From positions 93,687 to 157,686 of the forward strand of contig JALHMI010000017.1 in the NCBI GenBank assembly GCA_022844125.1: 64,000 bases of DNA, in the 5' to 3' direction. Made by a program: the position numbers and the translations under genes. Of this stretch, positions 22,255 to 35,836 are shown in pieces. Numbering within the stretch: the stretch's first letter is position 1; every line of letters begins with the position of its first letter. The DNA is from Pirellulales bacterium. GTDB lineage: Bacteria; Planctomycetota; Planctomycetia; Pirellulales; PALSA-1355. The notes below the pieces were generated by a model. The model made no database searches. It was not told the DNA's origin and worked only from the letters and a program-made list of their open reading frames with translations.

Positions 22255-23243
22255 ATGAGAACGGCGCAAGGCACCACGATCATCTCCAATGGGCAACTTG
22301 TCGACGGGACCGGCGCGGCCCCTCTCGCCGATGCAACCGTTGTGATTCGCGATGGGCGAATCGCTTATGCCGGCAGCGCTGCGGGCGCACCGCAGAGCGA
22401 AAGGGACGCCGCGCGGATCGACGCGCGTGGCGGCACGATCATGCCAGGGCTGGTCGAGGCGCACTATCATCCAACGTATTTCAACGTGGCGAATCTCGAG
22501 GATCTCGACATCAAGTATCCGGTCGAATACGTGACGCTGCTGGCGGCGGTCAACGCGCGGTTGGCGCTGGACTGCGGATATACGGCCGCTCGCAGCGGCG
22601 GCAGCCTGTTCAACATCGACGTCTGGCTGAAGCGCGCGATCGAAGAGGACCTGTTGCCGGGACCGCGGCTGGCGGCCAGCGGTCGCGAGATCTGCGGCAT
22701 TGGCGGGCTGATGGATTGGAATCCCGACTTTCGCAAGATCGGCATGGAAGGACTGGTGTTGCTGATCAACGGGCCGGATGAAGGTCGCCGCGCCGTGCGG
22801 AAGCTGGTGAAGGATGGCATTGAGTGGGTGAAGACCTATCCCACGGGCGACGCCGCGGCGCCGGATACCAACGATCATCACACGCTGTGCATGACGTTCG
22901 AGGAGATGTACGCCGTGGTGGCCGAGGCGCACAACCACAAGTTGAAAGTTACCGGCCACTGCCGAGCGAATGAGGGGATCAAGAACGCGCTGCGGGCCGG
23001 TTACGACACGCTCGAGCACGGCACGTTCATGGACGCCGAGGCGCTCGACATGCTGCTTGCGCGGAATGTGCCCGTCGTGCCGGCGCTGCAATTCGAGTAT
23101 GCCAGTATCGTGCATGGACCCGAGTTCGGGATGTCGCAGCGGGTCGTGGACGGACACCAGGAGACGCTCGACGCGGGCGCCGAGAGCGCGCGGATGATTC
23201 TGCGCTCAGGCGGCCGGCTGGGGATGGGAGGCGACTATGGCTT
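22255..23243 (+). pseudogene. Amidohydrolase (metal-dependent hydrolase) gene, 5' part, interrupted by the integrative element
   Basis: Amidohydrolase-type N-terminus (DGTGAAPLADATVVIRDGRIAY, GLVEAHYH metal-binding HxH). Homology ends at ...GMGGDYG (23241). The listed ORF then runs on antisense to the integrase gene. Confidence 0.8.
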
Positions 23244-23262
23244 ACCGAAGGAGCGTAACCGC
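23221..23262. other. attL (host arm ...GGCGACTATGGCTT | element arm ACCGAAGGAGCGTAACCGCCC)
   Basis: Breakpoint of amidohydrolase homology. Core GGCTT at 23239-23243. Confidence 0.75.
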
Positions 23263-25244
23263 CCGTCTTCGTCTTCTAGCCGGAAAGCCTCTCCCGATAC
23301 CGGGTTAAACGTGGCGGAAACGAGCGTAGAGCGTGCGTTGCCCGGTCCTACGGATTCGGAGCCGGTAGCGATAAACTCACACTCTACGCGGCTTAGGAGC
23401 CCCCTAAGAGCCTCTGCCCGCTGCCTTAGAGCCCGCGTTCCCGAATCGCTCGACATCGCAAGCTTTGCGTTCGCTATCGCCTGTTGAAGGTCGTGCATTT
23501 CGGCCCAGCTCGACCGGACCACTTCGGCTAGGTCCGTCCGGTTCATCCGGAGCCCGGCTAGTCGGCTCTCAAGCTCAGTGAGATGAGCCTTGGCGGTTTC
23601 CTTTGCGGCCGCAGTCGGAAGATCGGCCCAACCGAGCACGAGCCTTTGATACTCCGCTTCAATCTCTTTGATTGCCGTCTCTACGCTGGTCGGATCGAAG
23701 TTCAATCGGTAGCAATCGGCACAGCGGTCAATGAAGTCATCTTGGTCGATCTTGTCAGCGTCCAAGTCTTTCAATATCTGGGTGTACTCGTCAGCGTGGT
23801 TCGCTGCGAGGTAGCCCGTCAATCGGGCGATACCATCACGGAACGATTGCCAGCGTTCAGCTTCACTGCGGTCGAGTTGATCCGTCAAGTTCGGATCGTG
23901 ATCCCGTTCGATCAGCTCTAACCGCTTTCCGGATTCAACGAGATAGCGGTTGATAAGCTCCTCTAGAACGGACTGCTTGACTCCGTTCCGCAGGCAGGGG
24001 CTCTCGGCCAATCGTCCACGAACACGATGCTTGTCCCAAGACCCGCAGTAATACTCTTCACGGTCAGTCCTGGCGATCATCGGAGCCCCGCAGCCAGCAC
24101 AGACCACGAGCCCGGAGAGGTACATCTTGCCGGACTTCGGCACCGCCTTTGACTCACGTGGGCGAAGCTTCCGCTGTACCGCTTCCCACGTCTTCCGATC
24201 CACGAGCGGAGAGAACAAGCGACGGCTGCGAATAATGTCTTCTGATGAATTGGCTGTCTCTCGCCCAGCTAGGTCCGAATCAACCGTGCCAATAGCTCCG
24301 TCCTTGTACGAATGGAACCGGCCTGACCGACGCTTGCTAAAAGTCGCATAGCCCAGATACGTTTCGTCCTCCAGCATCTTGCTGATATCGCGAGCTTGGA
24401 AGAGCTTCCCGAAGCTGTTGCGGATACCAAGATCATTCAGCCACTTCGCCAAGGCAAAGTACGAAACCGATTCAGTGGCGAAACGCTTGAAGACGTTCTT
24501 AGCCGCAGCGAGCTTAGCCTTGTCTCGGGTCGGGACGATCCGCATCACGTGCGTGTCTGGGGAAGTAGCGTAGATGACTTTGCCGTCGAATCGCTCACTA
24601 CGTCCGTCCGGATAAACCTTCAAGCGTCGGATAGAGTACGTAGGCCGCTCACGACCACGCCGAATCTCAGAGCCAACAACGTCTCGGCCCTCGAATACTA
24701 CCCGCCACAGCTCTTGGTCAGTCGCTCTATCGAAGCAGCCCACGTCGAAACCAAGCTTCGGAGGACCACCCATCCACTCGCCAGCCTTGGCCCGCTCGAT
24801 CATGCCGCTAAGAACGCGGTAGCTTTTCTCACGCTGTTCCTTCGTTGAGGTTTTACCAGCGAGCCAAGCAGTAATCTCGGTTGCGTCGTCTTCGCCCGTC
24901 CACTCTCGCCCGCTCGCATCGAACAGACGACAACCAGCGTCCTCAAGATCGCCAAGGTAGCGGAAGAGCCGCTTTGCGTTCTTCGCTCCGAAGCGGTCTA
25001 GCCGGTCCACGACGATCCATTGAAGCTTGCCTTCACGAGCCTGCCGGAGCATCCGTTGAAACTCGGGACGAACAGCGTCCGCATCTCGCTCCCAACCCCG
25101 ATCAACGAACCAGTTCGGATCAGAGATTTTGACAGCGAAGCGAGATTCAAACCCACGGACAGAAGAGTTCTGCCGCTCCGTGTCTTGGGCGTCCGTGGAG
25201 ACACGTAAGTACGCACCCCCAGCACCGATCAGATTTGGCGACAT
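23235..25244 (-). CDS. Large serine recombinase (phage integrase)
   Basis: 669 aa. Resolvase catalytic motif AYLRVSTDAQDTERQ, a recombinase domain, a zinc ribbon CAGCG...CGSW and a coiled-coil C-terminus. The last codons and the stop lie across attL in host DNA. Confidence 0.9.
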   Translation of the reverse strand: MSPNLIGAGGAYLRVSTDAQDTERQNSSVRGFESRFAVKISDPNWFVDRGWERDADAVRPEFQRMLRQAREGKLQWIVVDRLDRFGAKNAKRLFRYLGDLEDAGCRLFDASGREWTGEDDATEITAWLAGKTSTKEQREKSYRVLSGMIERAKAGEWMGGPPKLGFDVGCFDRATDQELWRVVFEGRDVVGSEIRRGRERPTYSIRRLKVYPDGRSERFDGKVIYATSPDTHVMRIVPTRDKAKLAAAKNVFKRFATESVSYFALAKWLNDLGIRNSFGKLFQARDISKMLEDETYLGYATFSKRRSGRFHSYKDGAIGTVDSDLAGRETANSSEDIIRSRRLFSPLVDRKTWEAVQRKLRPRESKAVPKSGKMYLSGLVVCAGCGAPMIARTDREEYYCGSWDKHRVRGRLAESPCLRNGVKQSVLEELINRYLVESGKRLELIERDHDPNLTDQLDRSEAERWQSFRDGIARLTGYLAANHADEYTQILKDLDADKIDQDDFIDRCADCYRLNFDPTSVETAIKEIEAEYQRLVLGWADLPTAAAKETAKAHLTELESRLAGLRMNRTDLAEVVRSSWAEMHDLQQAIANAKLAMSSDSGTRALRQRAEALRGLLSRVECEFIATGSESVGPGNARSTLVSATFNPVSGEAFRLEDEDGRLRSFGKP

Positions 25245-26539: not shown

Positions 26540-27076
26540 TTAAACTGAAGCTGAATCGAATTGCCGTTGAATCTGTTTCAGACGAGCATCCGTCTCCGCA
26601 ACAGATTGACTAATGCGTTCCTGGCGTTCTTCTTGCCACGTCTTCGGGGTGAGGCGTCGAACTACTCGCTCCAGGCTTGAGACCATCACTTGGACTTCGG
26701 CAACCTGCTTTGCGAGCCGTTCAAGCTCGTCAAGCTCGTCTGGTTGAATGGGCGGAATGTTGGCCGGAGAACCGGACGGACTGCCCATGCCTCGCAGCCA
26801 AGATTGTTGCTGCTGGATCGTGTCCCTGAGTCGCGTGTAGTCCTTGCTATAGCGGTCGCGACGTAGCGTCCAGAACTCAAGCTTGATCTTGAACCGACCA
26901 AGCTTGTCCTTCGGGGGCTCGCGAAAGTTGTAGTGGCCCATGTCGCCTTCACGAACTTGGGCACCATTCTGAAACACGATCCGCGTTCCACTGTTGCGGT
27001 TGATCTTTTCGTACTCGCAACCCTGACGCCCGGCGAACTCTTCAAACTCGTGACCAATCATTGTTGTTGCCCTCAT
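26540..27076 (-). CDS. Hypothetical phage-element protein
   Basis: 178-aa ORF whose ATG overlaps the TerL stop (ATGA at 27073-27076), suggesting translational coupling. Coiled-coil-like C-terminus. Confidence 0.5.
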   Translation of the reverse strand: MRATTMIGHEFEEFAGRQGCEYEKINRNSGTRIVFQNGAQVREGDMGHYNFREPPKDKLGRFKIKLEFWTLRRDRYSKDYTRLRDTIQQQQSWLRGMGSPSGSPANIPPIQPDELDELERLAKQVAEVQVMVSSLERVVRRLTPKTWQEERQERISQSVAETDARLKQIQRQFDSASV

Positions 27077-28665
27077 CTACCATACAGGTTCATAAAACTT
27101 CGCCACTCCGCTCGGGAGTCGTCGTTGCCACCTTGGGCGAGACGCTTCATCTCATCTTGGTAGGCTTGTCGCCGAGCATTGATGCTCGACTCTGACGCAT
27201 ACTTGGGGTCGAACATATCGCGACCAATCAGCCGCGTGTGAGTTCCGGTCAACTCCGTCGCTGCGATCAACGCCAAGGCGAAAGCGGTTCCCAAGTCACC
27301 GTGACCCGTAGCAGCATCACGCGGGCTAACGAGTCGGAAGCCATAGCTTTTCTCTTCGATCCTCATCCGGCGAAGATCACGCCGCAGGACTTCGTCGGGA
27401 AACAAGTCAACCTTCCGGTCGTTGAAGGCTTCTATGACGGCAGTAGCCATTCGCTGTAGATTGGCTCCGCTCGGAGTGATCTCAACCATCGGCAGTCGAG
27501 AGAGCGTCAGCCGTTGCGACATATGAGTCGCTTGCCACGGATCGAAATTGATCGCCTTGAATTGGTAGCCACGGTGGAGCGTAAGGACTTTCCCTTCAAC
27601 GTCCGACAAGTTGACCTTCGATCCCCGAGAGGGACGCCAGACCTTCGTATAAGCCAGTCGGATTCGGCCATGCTCGCTAGTGTCTCCTGCCTCCCATGAG
27701 TTCTTTCTCCGGACAGCGAGCACGCATAGAGCGGAAGCATCCCGAGTCACGCCTAAGTCAAGCCCGGCAACAAAGTCCCATCCCTCTGTTCTGGGCGGTA
27801 GCTGCTTTAGCTCTGGCTTAAAGGCTGCTTCGATATCTTCAGCCGTGAGAGCATCGCCGCCACCCGTAGACCAATTGTTTCCCCAGAGCCGGTCGTAAGC
27901 GACAGGGGGAAGCATCCGCCTCTGTTCTTCAAGTCGATCTTCGGTGAGCCAAGATGCCTTCGGCCCGTCGAGCCGAGAGAACAGCCAGCTTGGATCCATC
28001 CGAACTGCTTCACGCACGGCCCATTGCCAACTGTCGATGAAGCCCGCGTTGCTGATAACCGCCAATACACAGTCGCTACGCTTGGCCGCTGAACTGATAA
28101 TCGAGTGCCAAAGGCTTCCATCTCCGAGCCAATGCGTGAGCTCATCGGAAATTAAAAACGAGGGGAGTAGGCCATAACTTGAGGCTACGTCTGACGTGAA
28201 AATCGTCAGGCTAGCGTCTTCGCCGGGATGCCGCTTGCCGATGTTCACGACCTGATTCTTTTGGACTTCGAGTAGCTCGCCTAGCCAAGGATTCAACCGG
28301 CAGAGGACTTGAATAGCGTCCTTCAGCAGTCCCGCTTGATCGCGATCAGCAGCGAACGCATAACCCTTGATTGGTCGAGTAGCGAACGCAAGAGCCCACG
28401 AAGACATAACCGCAAGGTCCGTGGTCTTGCTGTGACCACGACCCCGTTCAAAGTAAGCTCGCATCACCGGCTGAGTCTTGCTCTTCTCTGGAGCACGACC
28501 GACGCACTTCAACCAGCCCGCGTCGAGGCTCGCGAAGTCTTCCCGCTGCCAGGAGTCCATGACTTCGGAAAATCGCCGCACCCGTCCGTCCACGTCGACT
28601 TGGAGCGCATCCCTGAACTCCTTCGGGTTGTTGGCGAACTTCTGGAAGGTAGTTGATGAGATCAT
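27073..28665 (-). CDS. terL: Phage terminase large subunit
   Basis: 530 aa. Walker A-like ERGRGHSKT and Walker B-like FLISDELTHW. Nuclease half with GLDLGVTRDASALCVLA and HGDLGTAFALALIA. The layout fits the Terminase_1/COG4626 type. Confidence 0.8.
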   Translation of the reverse strand: MISSTTFQKFANNPKEFRDALQVDVDGRVRRFSEVMDSWQREDFASLDAGWLKCVGRAPEKSKTQPVMRAYFERGRGHSKTTDLAVMSSWALAFATRPIKGYAFAADRDQAGLLKDAIQVLCRLNPWLGELLEVQKNQVVNIGKRHPGEDASLTIFTSDVASSYGLLPSFLISDELTHWLGDGSLWHSIISSAAKRSDCVLAVISNAGFIDSWQWAVREAVRMDPSWLFSRLDGPKASWLTEDRLEEQRRMLPPVAYDRLWGNNWSTGGGDALTAEDIEAAFKPELKQLPPRTEGWDFVAGLDLGVTRDASALCVLAVRRKNSWEAGDTSEHGRIRLAYTKVWRPSRGSKVNLSDVEGKVLTLHRGYQFKAINFDPWQATHMSQRLTLSRLPMVEITPSGANLQRMATAVIEAFNDRKVDLFPDEVLRRDLRRMRIEEKSYGFRLVSPRDAATGHGDLGTAFALALIAATELTGTHTRLIGRDMFDPKYASESSINARRQAYQDEMKRLAQGGNDDSRAEWRSFMNLYGR

Positions 28666-29184: not shown

Positions 29185-29775
29185 CTACGCTTTAAGAACG
29201 GAGTAGATCGTCGGTCGAGAGAGGCCTACGGCAGCAGCGATAGCCGTGATCTGCTCTCCGTCCTTACGCATCGCCTTGATGGCCTTGAGTTGCGTATCGG
29301 TTACACGCTTCCGAACACCAGGCAGCGACCCGCCCCATCGTTTGCCTTGTGCTTTTGCTTTCGCTTGTCCCGCTGCTACTCGCTCGCCTCGCACTTCCGT
29401 CTCGTATTGAGCGACAGACGCCAAGACGTTCGCCATCAGTCGCCCTGCGGGTGTGCTAAGGTCGAGCCCGTCCTTGAGCGAGACTAGGTTCACCTTCCGC
29501 TCTCTCAACTCATCGAACAGAGCGGTGAGCCCCTTAGCCGTGCGGCCTAGTCGATCTATTCGCCACACAACCACAGCCGAGACTCGGCCTTGTCGTATCG
29601 CTGCTTCTAGCTTGCTCCAGGCGGGTCGATCCATGCTCTTGCCGCTCGCCTTATCGCGGTAGTACACGACGGGAAGGTCTTGAGCATCGGCCCATCGCTC
29701 CAGATCAGGCTCCTGTGACTTCGTCTCCTGTACCGCAGTCGAGACTCGTAAATAGATCGCAACGTATTTGCCCAT
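29185..29775 (-). CDS. Small serine recombinase (resolvase/invertase type) with C-terminal HTH
   Basis: 196 aa. VAIYLRVSTAVQETKSQ catalytic motif, VVVWRIDRLGRT, and a C-terminal HTH ITAIAAAVGLSRPTIYSVL. Confidence 0.85.
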   Translation of the reverse strand: MGKYVAIYLRVSTAVQETKSQEPDLERWADAQDLPVVYYRDKASGKSMDRPAWSKLEAAIRQGRVSAVVVWRIDRLGRTAKGLTALFDELRERKVNLVSLKDGLDLSTPAGRLMANVLASVAQYETEVRGERVAAGQAKAKAQGKRWGGSLPGVRKRVTDTQLKAIKAMRKDGEQITAIAAAVGLSRPTIYSVLKA

Positions 29776-30217: not shown

Positions 30218-31276
30218 CTAAGACTCAGCGAGATCACACTGCCCTAAGCGCAATACGAAGTCCGCATTGAACTGCTCAACGGATTTGATCCGATCTACAG
30301 CGACAACGAAATTGACATTTGGGACTTTTAGAAGCTTCTGTGACGTAGTTGCTCCTCCAAAGATTCCATCAAATGGATGAGAGTACCACTTAAGCCAACT
30401 GGCCAATGTGGTTCTCGAAATGGACCCCAACGTACAGAAGAACACATAGTGCTCGGACTTTTTGATAGAGTCTCTCATACCGTCATCCAGATCACGCCAC
30501 ATGTAGTACTGCATCCAGTCTTGAAATTCCTTCTTCTTGAGGGCAGGCATGAAGACAATTACAACCTGCTGATACTTCCCGCCCACGAGCTTGTATCTGA
30601 ACGCCGAGTCTGCAAAGCGAAGCTCTTGACCATCAAATCTTAGAAAGCCAAGCCGCTCAAGAATGGCTTTCCCCGCCTCAATAATCCCTTCGGACTTTCG
30701 ATACATTGGTAGCGTATAGAACGCCGATTCGGCTTCACGCTTTTGGCTATCCAACGCTCGTTGGCGAAGTAGCGGACGGAGAACGTGGTTGAGCCGAGAC
30801 TTTAGCCGTTGGCGGAACGCCTCATTGGGGCTCGTCCACCAAATTATATTCTTCATCTGGAGGTCGAAGTGGATCTTTCGGTTGCCATGCTCGTCATCGT
30901 CTCTTGGTCGCGAGTGATCGCCGCGAGCGATGTAGATCACGGGTTTCCCGCTCGCAAAGGCATATCCAGCTTCGTAGTACACGGATGGCCTAGCGTAAGT
31001 CAGATCGGCTATGCAAAGGTCAGACGCATCTAGCAACTCCATGATCTTGTCGTCTATGTCGTCGTTATGCTCCGTTCGGTTTACCCGCAAGGGCTGAATG
31101 TCCATCTCGCGAAGAAGCTTTTTAACTACTTTGTCATAGATCGCGTCCACGTCATCCCAGTCGAACGCACTAGCGATAAAGCATTTCAGTTTCACGCCGG
31201 GACTCCCACCATTGCGAAGGGTAAGCAAACCACCATAATATTGACAACTCCCGCTAAGTGCCAAGAGCTGATTTGG
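30218..31276 (-). CDS. Nucleoside 2-deoxyribosyltransferase-like / TIR-like (Rossmannoid) domain protein with an unknown C-terminal domain
   Basis: ORF 30218..31336. Possible starts are ATG 31336, 31309 and 31276, or GTG 31195 (preceded by GGGAG). N-terminal KLKCFIASAFDWDD ... DLCIADLTYARPSVYYEAGYAFASGKPVIYI matches the NDT/DUF1863-type motif layout. Confidence 0.6.
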   Translation of the reverse strand, partial: PNQLLALSGSCQYYGGLLTLRNGGSPGVKLKCFIASAFDWDDVDAIYDKVVKKLLREMDIQPLRVNRTEHNDDIDDKIMELLDASDLCIADLTYARPSVYYEAGYAFASGKPVIYIARGDHSRPRDDDEHGNRKIHFDLQMKNIIWWTSPNEAFRQRLKSRLNHVLRPLLRQRALDSQKREAESAFYTLPMYRKSEGIIEAGKAILERLGFLRFDGQELRFADSAFRYKLVGGKYQQVVIVFMPALKKKEFQDWMQYYMWRDLDDGMRDSIKKSEHYVFFCTLGSISRTTLASWLKWYSHPFDGIFGGATTSQKLLKVPNVNFVVAVDRIKSVEQFNADFVLRLGQCDLAES

Positions 31277-31326
31277 CATCCGTGGTCCTACACCGTCGTT
31301 CCAGCTCATCAGGAGAGATCGAACAA

Positions 31327-32025
31327 ATGGCAACAATCGTGTGGATCATCCTCTTGATTGTGACTTTCGTATGGACGCTTTCCTCCAGACTCATCTACAA
31401 CCTCGCAATTGCTCCCTTCGAGCCCGCATTGCGTCAGTGGTTGTTCTTCAAAGCTCCAGTGAGGCTTCTTAATCGCATCGTACTCTCAGCGGTCAAAGGA
31501 GCCGTCAACGGGCGAACCCACGCAGACGCAATGTTTGAGTTGGTCACGATCCGCATCTTCGTGGTCTTCCTGCCTATGTTGCTTATGTTCGGCCTCGCTG
31601 CCGGTCTAGCCGATATGTCCATTGAGAACCTAAATGCGAAGCTAGGCATTGTGGTCGAAGAAGCCCCGGCTCTGACGCCAGAGCAAGAACTGGAGCGTAT
31701 AACCTTCAAGAGCCGCTTCTATCGAACGCTGATCGGCATCGGGATAGTATTGATGTTTGGGAGCTTCGCTCTGTCGTCATTCGCCAGCATGCGCTCTCGC
31801 ATGTCGTTTACTCACCAGAGAACCATGAGCAAGCTCCAGCCCTTTCTGACTCCGGAGGAACTTCACGAATTGATGATTGTCGAGCACGGCGTACATACCG
31901 ACGCGGCTACCTACCGATACATCTCCGCAGTTCAACGCATGACAGACGCCCACGGCCTGTCCGACATTGCGCATATCTGGCCCCGTCGCCTTGTTCCTAA
32001 TCAAACTGTTGCCGACCAAGGCTAA
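31327..32025 (+). CDS. Hypothetical 3-TM membrane protein
   Basis: ATG at 31327 preceded by AGGAGAG. TM segments IVWIILLIVTFVW, IFVVFLPMLLMFGLAAGLA and LIGIGIVLMFGSFALSSFA. Divergent from the NDT/TIR-like gene. Confidence 0.6.
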   Translation: MATIVWIILLIVTFVWTLSSRLIYNLAIAPFEPALRQWLFFKAPVRLLNRIVLSAVKGAVNGRTHADAMFELVTIRIFVVFLPMLLMFGLAAGLADMSIENLNAKLGIVVEEAPALTPEQELERITFKSRFYRTLIGIGIVLMFGSFALSSFASMRSRMSFTHQRTMSKLQPFLTPEELHELMIVEHGVHTDAATYRYISAVQRMTDAHGLSDIAHIWPRRLVPNQTVADQG

Positions 32026-32285
32026 TCGTCCTCCGTGAACGGCTCTCCGTTCAAAATCTTCGTGTAGGCTTTCTCCAACGAGCGGGAGAACTGAACAAAG
32101 TTTCGCATCTCAGTTAAGTCGATCCCCTTCAAACCGAGAGCCAAAAGCCGCTCGCCTAACTCTAGACTAGGCTCGACCCTCGCCAAACTGGCCCGAATCT
32201 GTTCAAGGAACTCGCGTATCTCATCGTCGCTGATCCGTTCCCAATCGAGCATGCCCTCTACGTGATCTTCATGGAAGTCAACCAT
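32022..32285 (-). CDS. Hypothetical small acidic protein
   Basis: 87-aa ORF overlapping the stop of the TET/JBP-like gene by 8 nt. It is the last gene of the leftward operon. Confidence 0.45.
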   Translation of the reverse strand: MVDFHEDHVEGMLDWERISDDEIREFLEQIRASLARVEPSLELGERLLALGLKGIDLTEMRNFVQFSRSLEKAYTKILNGEPFTEDD

Positions 32286-33129
32286 TGCGTCTCCTCAGTC
32301 GCATAAGTTCCTCCGATCCCAAGTTGCCGCACGTCTGAAGCCTCTCACGGAAATACATCACCGTGGAGATACGCTCCCAGCCTGGCTCGCCGATGATCGG
32401 CGTGTTTCCGTGGTACTCGTGAACGTCCGCGAGCAACACGTCTCGGTCCCGAAGATCCACCGCCACTCGATACTGGGGAAATACCAAGAGCCCACCGCTG
32501 TAGTTTCCCGAGCGGAGAACGCTCATAACGCCAAACCCAGCAGCCAAGTCGTTCTTGTCGGTATGAACGCGAGTCCGAAGGTTTCGATTCACCGTGACGG
32601 TCGTGAAAACCGTATTTGGTATTACGAAGTCTTTCGCAGTTCGTGCGACTACTTCCGCCTGGGCCGCGTAACGTTCAGGCAACTCCGATTTGAATATCAG
32701 ATTGGCCGCCTGAGCATAGGCGATGATTCGACTGTAGCCGGCCAAATCTGAGCGGGTGAATGCGGTAGCTCGACACGTCGGCTCGCGGCGACTGCGGCCG
32801 AAGTAGCCCACGATGCCGCTCTCAGCAGCGATCGCAGGCCGCGTCTTCTTGAACTTTCCGTCCGGCCCACGTTTCTCGGGCTGGAGCCCAGCCACCGTTG
32901 CCCGGTTATACGTGACCCTGGCCGCTCTCCGCAGTGCCGGCAGGGCTCGGGTCGAGATATCCTCCGGCATCGCCGCATGGCGGTACACCAACAGCGGAGA
33001 GCCGTCTGGCTTGAGCACCGTCGTATCTTCGCCGGTCACTAAATAATCAAAGCCCCGTTCTATGAACTTGCCTTCGAGTTTCTTCACGTCCTTGTCGAGC
33101 ATCGAGCCGAGTAGCCGGATCAGTTTCAT
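32278..33129 (-). CDS. TET/JBP-family 2OG-Fe(II) dioxygenase-like protein
   Basis: ATG at 33129 overlaps the upstream stop (ATGA). HxD motif RVHTDKND, then GGLLVFPQYRVAVDL..DVLLADVHEYHGNTPI (distal His) and RISTVMYFR (Arg), matching the Tet_JBP motif order. Confidence 0.6.
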   Translation of the reverse strand: MKLIRLLGSMLDKDVKKLEGKFIERGFDYLVTGEDTTVLKPDGSPLLVYRHAAMPEDISTRALPALRRAARVTYNRATVAGLQPEKRGPDGKFKKTRPAIAAESGIVGYFGRSRREPTCRATAFTRSDLAGYSRIIAYAQAANLIFKSELPERYAAQAEVVARTAKDFVIPNTVFTTVTVNRNLRTRVHTDKNDLAAGFGVMSVLRSGNYSGGLLVFPQYRVAVDLRDRDVLLADVHEYHGNTPIIGEPGWERISTVMYFRERLQTCGNLGSEELMRLRRRNG

Positions 33130-33677
33130 GGCTGCTGCCCTTTCTGGTGCTTGTCGTATGCCTCGCGTACGATCCGACAAACCGTCACGCCAGTCTTTTC
33201 AACCAAGGGATCATTAAGCTGTTCCATATGACGGTTGAATTCCCGGAAGAGTTCGACCGTGACCGGGAGTTTGATCTCCATTCCGTCTTCGTCTTCCCCT
33301 TCGTCCTTCTTATCTTTGCGACCTTTCGATGGTCCGGCGAGATGCGCTCTAATTACCTCAAGGCTCGCATCTTGAAGTTTCGCGGCTTCGATCTCAGGCC
33401 ACTTGCTCGCGACCTTCATGTACCATCTCGCCGTCACTGCCGACGCCTTGAAGTTTTTAGTGAGCCAATCACCCCACTCCCCATGCTCCAAGCGGCTCTT
33501 GGCTTCGTTTAATGCCTCTCCGGCTGCCCGCACATGCGCATTCGCTCCGGCCATGCGAGTCCGATACAGACCCTCATACGCTTGATGATTCTCGTTTGCT
33601 TGCTCGGCCAGTTCGGCCAGAGCGGCGGATTGGTCGGCCTCAAAACGAAGAACCCTTTTCGTTTTGTCGTCTGCCAC
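33126..33677 (-). CDS. DUF3102-like phage/plasmid regulatory protein
   Basis: 183 aa. HGEWGDWLTKNFKASAVTARWYMKVA resembles the DUF3102 signature (GxWxxWL...S.rtAqrYM). Confidence 0.5.
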   Translation of the reverse strand: MADDKTKRVLRFEADQSAALAELAEQANENHQAYEGLYRTRMAGANAHVRAAGEALNEAKSRLEHGEWGDWLTKNFKASAVTARWYMKVASKWPEIEAAKLQDASLEVIRAHLAGPSKGRKDKKDEGEDEDGMEIKLPVTVELFREFNRHMEQLNDPLVEKTGVTVCRIVREAYDKHQKGQQP

Positions 33678-34496: not shown

Positions 34497-34650
34497 CGTC
34501 CCGAAACCCTAGTTGTCGCGAACGTCTTACACGCTTTTCGACTACCCTTTCGGGACGGCAGAAATTGCGAGAATCTCCGTACTAGTGGGAGGAGTTTTAA
34601 GTACGTTTCGGGACGGATATTTTCTTCAAGCAAACTAGGGTTTCGGGACG
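34497..34650. promoter_or_regulatory. Iteron/operator-like array: 4 copies of TTTCGGGACG(G), with the outer two forming an 18-bp perfect inverted repeat
   Basis: CGTCCCGAAACCCTAGTT (34497-34514) pairs with AACTAGGGTTTCGGGACG (34633-34650). Direct copies sit at 34548-34558 and 34606-34616. Confidence 0.6.
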
Positions 34651-35336
34651 GTTTTTCGCCTACCGTCTTCAGAAAGCTCCCCACGCTGAAATGCCTGAAA
34701 GTAAGCGTCCATCGGATAAGGTTCGTCCTTCCATTCATCCCAGAAGCGACCAACCGTTGATTTGGAGATATTAAACAGCGCAGCCACTTCGCGGATTGAT
34801 TGTGTTTCGAGTGCCGTCAGCACTTCGGTTGTCAGCGGCCAAGCCAGTTGCGGCTTCCGTCCACAGCGGCCACTCCGTTTGGTCGCCTTGCTGTGCCTCT
34901 CAGATTCCGTGAGTGATGGGTGCTCGATGGTCACGAGCGGCACCCCATCGGCCATCTCCCAGAGCTTCTTCAACTCTTCGGACGTTGGCTCTGCGTTGAT
35001 GTTTGTCCAGTGATGATAACTGGCTGAGCGAATGAACCGCGACACGTCCCCACTAACTATCGGAACGTTGAACTTCTTCGCAGCACGCACTGCTTTCTGG
35101 AACAAGGGTCGATAATTGAGTTGCCCTCGCTCCACACCGGCGATTGTCATGCGCGCACGTCGTCCGAACGCAGATCGTATCGTCGCTTCGCCGTACTCTT
35201 GCTGCGTGACGAGGCTTTTAACTTGTCCAGGATTGTCGGAGCTGGCCCGGCAGTAGTGGATACACGCGGAAAAGTTTTCGGCCGCATCGGGCAGGAATAG
35301 AAACCCGGTATCGGGTAAACTAAGACTAGTGGACAT
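34635..35336 (-). CDS. Divergent resolvase-type serine recombinase homolog with C-terminal HTH
   Basis: 233 aa. IHYCRASSDNPGQ...TQQ aligns to the YxRVSxxxQ...Q motif and VPIVSGDVSRFIRS to lvVxxlDRlxRs. C-terminal GRCGRKPQL...SIREVAALFNISKSTVGRFW is HTH_7-like. Confidence 0.5.
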   Translation of the reverse strand: MSTSLSLPDTGFLFLPDAAENFSACIHYCRASSDNPGQVKSLVTQQEYGEATIRSAFGRRARMTIAGVERGQLNYRPLFQKAVRAAKKFNVPIVSGDVSRFIRSASYHHWTNINAEPTSEELKKLWEMADGVPLVTIEHPSLTESERHSKATKRSGRCGRKPQLAWPLTTEVLTALETQSIREVAALFNISKSTVGRFWDEWKDEPYPMDAYFQAFQRGELSEDGRRKTVPKP

Positions 35337-35349
35337 CGTTTTTAATCCG

Positions 35350-35399
35350 AACCTCCTAGCCTGATCTTTGCCGGACTGGGCTAGGAGGTTTGTTTTTTC
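35350..35399 (+). terminator. Terminator-like hairpin near the right end of the element
   Basis: 12-bp perfect stem AACCTCCTAGCC/GGCTAGGAGGTT followed by TGTTTTTT on the plus strand. Confidence 0.5.
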
Positions 35400-35530
35400 G
35401 ACGGGCTCTAAACCCGTTTCATTCCCGCTCTCTTGCGGGATAGGTCTACATCGAGCGAGTCTCCTGTTAGGCCAGGTGTTTCTGGAGCTGAGGACCGCTA
35501 GCTAGGCGGATTCGGAGCAATCGGAGCAAA

Positions 35531-35572
35531 GGGCGGTAGCGATCTTCCGGCTTCGCGTGGAATCCACACGGC
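35531..35572. other. attR (element arm GGGCGGTAGCGATCTTCCGGCTT | host arm CGCGTGGAATCCACACGGC)
   Basis: Amidohydrolase reading frame resumes at 35552. Core GGCTT at 35549-35553. Confidence 0.75.
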
Positions 35573-35836
35573 ACTTACGCCAAGGAACTCACGTTCTTTG
35601 TCAAGCACGTGGGGCTGTCGGCGCTCGAAGTGATTCACTGCGCAACGCAGACGGGCGCCGAGATCATGGGTCGCGGCGACGAGTTCGGCACGGTGGCCGC
35701 CGGGAAGCTGGCCGATCTGCTGGTGGTCGATGGGGACGTCGTGGCTGACATTTCGCTGCTGGAAGATCGCCGCAAGTTTCTGGCGGTGATGCAAGCCGGT
35801 GTCATCAAGTCCGGGCAGCTGGCACCAGCGTGCTAG
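35549..35836 (+). pseudogene. Amidohydrolase gene, 3' part (displaced C-terminal 95 codons)
   Basis: In-frame translation G-FAWNPHGTYAKELTFFVKHVGLSALEVIHCATQTGAEIMG...GKLADLLVVDGD is a typical amidohydrolase C-terminus. There is no start of its own upstream of the internal Met. Confidence 0.8.

Follow-up and report, generated by a model that had tools for sequence, protein, structure and literature searches.

An integrase gene in a Pirellulales genome (assembly GCA_022844125.1, contig JALHMI010000017.1) takes its stop codon from host DNA beyond the end of the mobile element that carries it, which raises the question of whether the integrated and the free element encode the same enzyme. We analysed a window of 64,000 nucleotides (contig positions 93,687 to 157,686, forward strand; coordinates below are those of the window unless a contig is named). 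It is highly likely that attP lies inside the integrase (int) frame, so that integration removes and excision restores a C-terminal tail. The features on which this structure rests are:

22255..23243, plus strand: host amidohydrolase gene, 5' part (codons 1 to about 330), from the open reading frame, rejoining and Pfam
23235..25244, minus strand: integrase gene in the integrated state, 669 aa, large serine recombinase, from the open reading frame and Pfam
23235..23238, minus strand: host-derived bases, comprising the final base of the terminal Pro codon (CCA) and the TAG stop codon, antisense of host GAC TAT (Asp-Tyr)
23239..23243: attL core copy GGCTT; its TT at the dyad centre (23242-23243) corresponds on the int strand to AA in the Lys codon
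23244..35548: integrated element, 12,305 bp, about 56% GC versus about 64% in the flanks
35549..35553: attR core copy GGCTT, the second occurrence of the pentamer
35554..35836, plus strand: host amidohydrolase gene, 3' part, from rejoining and Pfam

On the minus strand, positions 23252..23235 read TCC TTC GGT AAG CCA TAG and close the 669-aa open reading frame (23235-25244); the 5-bp core sits in the Lys-Pro codons of the integrase end ..SFGKP. Rejoining 22255-23243 with 35554-35836 gave an unbroken 423-aa protein that reads ..GMGGDYGFAWNPHG.. across the joint, and Pfam family Amidohydro_1 matched residues 61-413 of this rebuilt protein at profile positions 1-343 of 345. As the match spans the junction and is nearly full-length, the host gene has simply been split. 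When the other two halves are rejoined, the int frame continues as AAG CCG GAA GAT CGC TAC ... GCC TAA and adds EDRYRPLLRLLRIRLASGPQLQKHLA, which makes the integrase 695 aa long with a 26-aa tail, as compared with 669 aa in the integrated form. The original prediction is thereby borne out on four points, namely a stop codon in host DNA (the TAG is the antisense of the host Asp-Tyr codons, and the amidohydrolase is restored on rejoining), an attP core within the int coding region (in the Lys-Pro codons, with the frame open across the rejoined ends), 26 additional residues in the attP form and different C termini in the two states. The coordinates it had given for the tail (35473-35548) and its stop (35470-35472) were 3 nt too high and are corrected to 35470-35547 and 35467-35469, respectively. 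The attP form is made up of the following parts:

23244..23267: P' arm of attP, encoding ..DGRLRSFG of the integrase
35528..35548: P arm of attP, whose minus strand encodes the tail linker residues (P)EDRYRP
35467..35547, minus strand: orphan int 3' end, 26 tail codons (35470-35547) and TAA stop (35467-35469), which becomes continuous with the int frame only in the circle
35497..35532, minus strand: motif-like part of the tail, PLLRLLRIRLAS, related to LLxRLLxVRYxV and starting 20.5 nt from the attP centre

While the element is integrated, the orphan tail lies within a stop-free segment of only 35 codons, and the chance of an open frame of at least 26 codons at this base composition is 39% (0.39). 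The 26-codon frame alone therefore carries no weight, and the case rests on homologs. A search with the 695-aa form recovered more than 120 relatives of 28-57% identity, nearly all of them metagenomic and the few named ones from Gemmataceae, and further, more distant relatives emerged when 1.8 billion representative proteins were searched with a profile. When genome, metagenome and viral contigs were scanned with the family alignment, unrelated serine recombinases with the same catalytic-site pattern crowded out most other matches; what was useful from them came down to two loci (L001, L002) and a few fragments, and the IMG/VR scan yielded no relative.

The C termini of the relatives fall into discrete classes. 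Thirteen end G[KN]P directly before the stop, like the window integrase, 23 carry ..YSSAHS.. close to the end (AHS class), four end ..TRATS[HP]M, and seven are 15-35 residues longer and have a common terminal motif, LLxRLLxVRYxV. Six of these seven terminate with LLLRLLTVRYIVG, LLHRLLTVRYAC, LLFRLLQGTYKVA, LLRIRYTV, LLLQVRYVA and LLAIFLGRRYVPAA, respectively, and the seventh reads LLKITYHV and continues. A profile of the motif scored 15.5-27.2 on the seven tailed homologs and at most 7.1 on every other homolog tail. More distant members end L.(R/T)(T/I/V)(Y/F), for example ..KLLTLHYTAAA, ..ARTYEVA and ..LRITY. It had been asked of the homologs whether free forms carry the longer tail or whether the conserved protein ends well before the core. 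They do not merely end before it: the seven long forms have an intact attP and a tail with the conserved terminal motif, and one of them is encoded on a circular contig.

This last protein, P0053, is encoded on a 6,759-bp contig (L247) with a 141-bp terminal overlap, and an independent assembly (L248) is a circular permutation of it, which together indicate a circle of about 6.6 kb. Directly after int, this circle carries a gene homologous (36% identity, E 9e-31) to the HTH gene at 34635-35336, which is intact next to attR in the window. At L162, int is followed by genes for a DUF3102 protein (homolog of 33126-33677) and a Tet_JBP protein (homolog of 32278-33180), the order expected of the window element once circularised. 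With kinase-like and response-regulator genes near the L162 element, an intact attP cannot be taken as proof of a free molecule. A Gemmataceae MAG supplies L001, where a relative of 8.35 kb is integrated and has a copy of a 14-bp core at either end. Here the integrase stops after ..TRATSHM, and its frame resumes at the far junction as ..DYRNTLLRLLTVTYRVA up to a stop, with an in-frame orphan ..LLRLLTVTYRVA that has the complete motif. The tailed set outside the window thus comprises seven homologs and one orphan, and circularity is demonstrated for one of the homologs. No orphan tail was detected in the 8.4 kb scanned of L250, a relative of L001, or within reach at L002, and the relatives found include no tailed form of an amidohydrolase-targeting element.

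The short forms are the integrated counterparts. In all three G[KN]P-ending homologs examined (P0006, P0016 and P0097) a convergent amidohydrolase gene overlaps the int 3' end, which, together with the reconstructed amidohydrolase, bears out the junction assignment. The DNA adjoining P0097 (L164-166) encodes residues 1-330 of the window amidohydrolase at 56% identity, and host codons GAT TAC give the stop TAA at L164, as GAC TAT give TAG in the window. Since Asp is GAY and Tyr is TAY, the antisense in this frame is always TAA or TAG directly after the Pro codon; judged by sequence, any host that keeps Asp-Tyr-Gly at this position would end the integrase at ..GKP. At L002, the integrase end ..AHSRIYRMRVGRIR corresponds to the opposite strand of a PNPOx-like host gene (which encodes ..RIRPTRIRYMREW..), and by this match all the variable endings of the AHS class, whether short, medium or 70 aa long, come from the host. 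The ..AHSRMKRTRVGRMR endings and the 70-aa tails of P0030 and P0087 had been candidates for free forms and were rejected on account of L002. L164-166 were likewise discarded as a source of orphan tails, being remnants that lack the amidohydrolase 3' part and the integrase catalytic domain. The position of attP within int is a property of the family and not an accident of one insertion.

The attP of the window is an imperfect inverted repeat of about 50 bp in which 16 of 25 positions are complementary about the core TT (next-best centre, 11); it has only 5 bp in common with attB, and the central dinucleotide TT is non-palindromic. A short, imperfectly dyadic attP with little identity to attB is what is expected of a serine integrase, the cleavage point being putative. 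Dyads were also evident at L161 (18 of 24 about TT) and in the circular L247 (16 of 24 about CA), values reached by none of 200 shuffles of each, and the same search gave no significant centre at L162, L163 and L249. The attP region of L161 (8265-8320) holds, besides its dyad, a direct repeat GGGAACGAT(C/A)CTAC that flanks the centre. From the attP centre to the first motif codon there are 20.5-21.5 nt at L161, L162 and L247, and 20.5 nt in the window by coordinate count. This constant spacing of about 21 nt means that attP occupies the stretch of codons that separates the motif from the protein body.

Constraint on the motif was assessed over 12 codons aligned across seven elements. Read in the int frame, these codons have an amino-acid identity of 0.50; the five alternative frames give 0.17-0.30, and stops interrupt four of them. 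The conserved Leu positions draw on all six Leu codons, pooled pS over the motif codons is 0.77 (saturated) and pN 0.46, and the tails differ from each other at 0.41-0.68 nucleotides per site. Frame-specific identity, saturated synonymous change and mixed Leu codons together argue that the motif is kept as protein and not as DNA.

The tail of the window itself is less typical. Its 14-mer YRPLLRLLRIRLAS ranks fifth of the 94,488 six-frame 14-mers of the window against a profile of the homolog tails. Its score of 10.0 falls between host-derived read-through tails (at most 7.1) and bona fide tails (15.5-27.2), and is similar to the 10-13 that background 14-mers at other loci reach on the same profile. 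This test, a BLOSUM-averaged profile with an empirical rank, is weaker than the HMM it replaced; that 15-position HMM of the homolog tails found the L001 orphan and missed the window tail (at most 4 bits). The window tail keeps LLRLL, has Leu in place of the Tyr conserved in eight of eight close relatives, extends 8 codons beyond the usual stop and ends ..KHLA. It may be a divergent variant of its lineage or a partly decayed orphan. An internal segment, LRxVIQRIECTF, resembles the motif weakly and not significantly.

The integrase is a large serine recombinase by its domains and fold. The 669-aa form matched Pfam families Resolvase (PF00239, 3.7e-16, residues 11-157), Recombinase (PF07508, 2.5e-13) and Zn_ribbon_recom (PF13408, 2.2e-06). 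The nucleophilic Ser16 in YLRVSTDAQ and the zinc-ribbon residues C382, C385, C400 and C417 are invariant in the family alignment. AlphaFold models of the tailed homolog P0007 and of the 695-aa window form (mean pLDDT 86.7 and 84.4, respectively) are both confident over the catalytic, recombinase, zinc-ribbon and coiled-coil parts, the last consisting in the window model of helices from about residue 424 to 616 between zinc-ribbon strands. Among solved structures, the P0007 model aligns best with the integrases of SPbeta, phiC31 and Bxb1, over about 700 columns and with E values from 6e-16 to 1e-12; by sequence, the match to phiC31 is weak and confined to the catalytic domain (E 7e-4). The last folded strand covers residues 654-657 in the window model and 696-699 in the P0007 model. 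Beyond it pLDDT is below about 55 in both, with a low-confidence helix over the motif (residues 673-684 in the window model), and neither model shows a docking site for the tail. As the attP codons lie past the last folded strand, the prophage form loses no folded element; according to the models, the 669-aa protein would keep every folded domain, and attP would be written into a disordered linker whose amino-acid sequence can vary freely.

The explanation that we favour, and consider probable as a whole, is that a large serine integrase inserts its own 12.3-kb element into a planctomycete amidohydrolase gene and thereby leaves its last 26 codons at the far junction (attR), and that the host Asp-Tyr codons, read antisense, provide a stop one base past the core. 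The prophage can encode only the 669-aa form and the circle encodes the tailed, 695-aa form, and excision would rejoin the ends and restore the C-terminal peptide, reversibly. Because the peptide would be made only from the circle and is nevertheless kept by selection, we infer that it must act in the circular state. Such a switch would regulate the integrase by the state of the element, as reported for IntP/IntX of Mx8. What the two forms do is a more tentative matter: by analogy, the tailed form made from the circle may be tuned for integration and the tail-less prophage form may have altered activity, either weaker integration or relaxed control of direction, and we regard this functional part as possible, somewhat short of probable. 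In characterised serine integrases a separate directionality factor (RDF) sets the direction, and acidic residues at the extreme C terminus of the phiC31 integrase lie in the RDF interface. Given that a separate factor normally reverses these enzymes and that the phiC31 C terminus belongs to its interface, a C-terminal change could plausibly matter. RDFs have no common fold (PMC11795197), and none of the genes in the window element could be named as an RDF candidate.

Among other roles for the tail, that of a degradation tag survives best and is in our view rather unlikely. Integrase made from the circle would then turn over quickly, and loss of the tag on integration would make the enzyme more stable. 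Most tails do end in small, non-polar residues soon after the motif (..YIVG, ..YKVA, ..YRVA, ..RYVA, ..YVPAA, ..HYTAAA), the ..KHLA of the window tail may be added to these, and the tail is disordered in the models, as is usual for tags. There is also a precedent in mycobacteriophages, for which PMC9934374 describes an attP inside the repressor gene and an ssrA-like tag that is detached on integration. The conserved part, however, is the amphipathic LLxRLL..Y stretch and not the extreme end, in P0053 the motif is followed by 20 polar residues, and ..RTYSGSELR and ..RTYGSEEIEAIRREIS are endings found among distant members.

Less likely still, the tail could be a docking peptide for a partner such as a directionality factor, the small resolvase of the element or a host protein, and not for the integrase's own coiled-coil. 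A short conserved helix, albeit in a low-confidence model, that follows a disordered linker is typical of binding peptides, and in the window, L247 and L002 a small serine recombinase is encoded alongside int; against this, no partner was identified, and cargo genes differ widely among the elements. It is similarly unlikely that the arrangement is real and without consequence, with the tail a tolerated read-through that is already decaying in the window. An open frame of a length expected by chance 39% of the time, the low model confidence over the tail, and the absence of the conserved Tyr and of the usual stop from a window tail that scores below all bona fide ones would fit such a view, but the family motif survives saturating synonymous change, lies at a fixed distance from the attP centre and is intact as an orphan in L001, and the window tail outscores every host-derived tail. 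We are more doubtful about a stronger version of the functional reading, in which recombination would toggle the enzyme, a C-terminal helix restricting the circle form to attP x attB and the tail-less form recombining attL x attR; if this were true, the substrate itself would specify direction, and the system could do without a separate directionality factor.

Conservation of the motif as DNA, for instance as the periphery of attP, as a terminator or as some other site, is very improbable. The motif adjoins the P arm, and a hairpin follows the stop codon in L161, yet the motif starts just beyond the complementary run that defines the P arm, Leu stays Leu through six codons in tails that differ at 0.41-0.68 per site, and of the five other frames four contain stops and all show low identity. 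An erroneous junction, with the true integrase end at a phage-encoded stop, could be suspected from the mere 5 bp common to both ends and is practically dismissed by the full-length rebuilt amidohydrolase, the step in GC at the junctions, the coincidence of the core with the centre of the attP dyad and the same int-amidohydrolase junction at three other loci.

The favoured mechanism, in which integration shortens the integrase, has counterparts in known systems. For Mx8, PMC6070905 (citing Tojo 1996 and Magrini 1999) describes an attP inside the integrase coding sequence and a prophage int that obtains a new 3' end, by which its activity is altered and not destroyed. The likeness to intP/intX is that attP lies inside int and that prophage and free phage encode different integrases. 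The original prediction had drawn this comparison, which is sound for the architecture (attP inside int, new 3' end) and fails for the enzyme class, Mx8 Int being a tyrosine recombinase and the window enzyme a serine recombinase; with such different chemistry, the resemblance is one of architecture and not of descent. Unlike Mx8, the window element loses only an unstructured 26-aa tail and adds no residues beyond the core. In Mx8 about 112 residues are reportedly replaced, a much larger part of the protein than the window tail.

For phages BPs and Brujita and the M. abscessus prophages MabB/MabN, PMC9934374 (citing Broussard 2013) places the attP core in the repressor gene, from which integration detaches the ssrA-like tag. 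Such integration-dependent immunity, as portrayed there, shares with our locus a core in coding sequence and a short C-terminal peptide left as a remnant at the other junction, and differs in that the repressor gene is cut, whereas the integrase of the window element would cut its own gene. The mycobacteriophages with integration-dependent immunity use a tyrosine-recombinase integrase. In the filamentous Ralstonia phage phiRSS0, attP lies in ORF13, where integration introduces a new stop codon that shortens the protein by 26 residues at its C terminus (PMC3816273); ORF13 is a DNA-binding regulator, whereas the shortened protein of the window is a recombinase. The phiC31, Bxb1, SPbeta and A118 systems resemble ours in domain set and fold, in short imperfect-dyad att sites with a non-palindromic dinucleotide and in insertion into a host gene, but by sequence the window integrase family is very distant from them. 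To our knowledge, attP lies outside int in all four. An attP inside a coding sequence is thus known for the Mx8 integrase, mycobacteriophage repressors and the phiRSS0 regulator. Our literature search, in which coverage of subscription papers was incomplete, retrieved no case of a serine integrase whose own gene contains attP, which is weak evidence of absence. Neither literature searches nor the IMG/VR scan gave comparable elements from Planctomycetota, and the present analysis adds a family of small integrative elements from this phylum.

Large serine integrases are leading tools for the insertion of large DNA into genomes, and their one-way behaviour and its reversal are an active structural question. 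If each reaction rewrites the C terminus of the enzyme, comparison of the isoforms would be a direct natural experiment. Prophage-derived integrases of this family are not native, some being tail-less and others carrying host antisense residues, e.g., ..AHSRMKRTRVGRMR, and mining pipelines that trust the prophage open reading frame would test the wrong protein.

Besides the integrase and HTH genes (see above), the window element carries the following cargo:

27073-28665, minus strand: TerL
29185-29775, minus strand: small resolvase/invertase with HTH
30218-31336, minus strand: 372-aa protein with a nucleoside 2-deoxyribosyltransferase-like region
32278-33180, minus strand: Tet_JBP dioxygenase, homolog in L162
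33845-34258, minus strand: HNH protein

No capsid or portal match was found in the 12.3 kb. With TerL and HNH genes and neither capsid nor portal, the gene content indicates a satellite-like element or a remnant and not a full phage, and the cargo possibly includes DNA-modification genes. Scans for promoters and terminators, both near the junction and upstream of int, gave nothing informative. A hairpin with a perfect 12-bp stem (AACCTCCTAGCC / GGCTAGGAGGTT) followed by a T-run lies at 35350-35398 (plus strand), between the HTH gene and the orphan tail, and was missed by the terminator scan because of its long loop. At the opposite junction, the host frame reads 79 codons through the int antisense to form a chimeric open reading frame of 410 aa (22255-23487, plus strand), which lacks the C-terminal quarter of the amidohydrolase and is convergent to int.

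The circular contigs (L247, 1-6759; L248, 1-6417) encode the integrase, a 236-aa recombinase-like protein just upstream of it, a DpnII/MboI-type restriction enzyme and the homolog of the HTH gene. Response-regulator and Ser/Thr-kinase genes (WD40 or FHA), of host or cargo origin, are located at 563-1015 and 12742-16188 of L162 and at 1502-6230 of L250. L164 (9938-12468; likewise L165 and L166) contains a decayed relative with a 498-aa integrase that lacks the catalytic domain. The flanking amidohydrolase is broken into four small open reading frames in L164-166, and no 3' part of the host gene occurs within 10 kb. At L002 (12100-12400), and in P0030, P0044, P0049, P0087 and others, the integrase ends are translated from the host antisense (PNPOx-like), and the position of the stop in the AHS class depends on synonymous codons of the host PNPOx-like gene.
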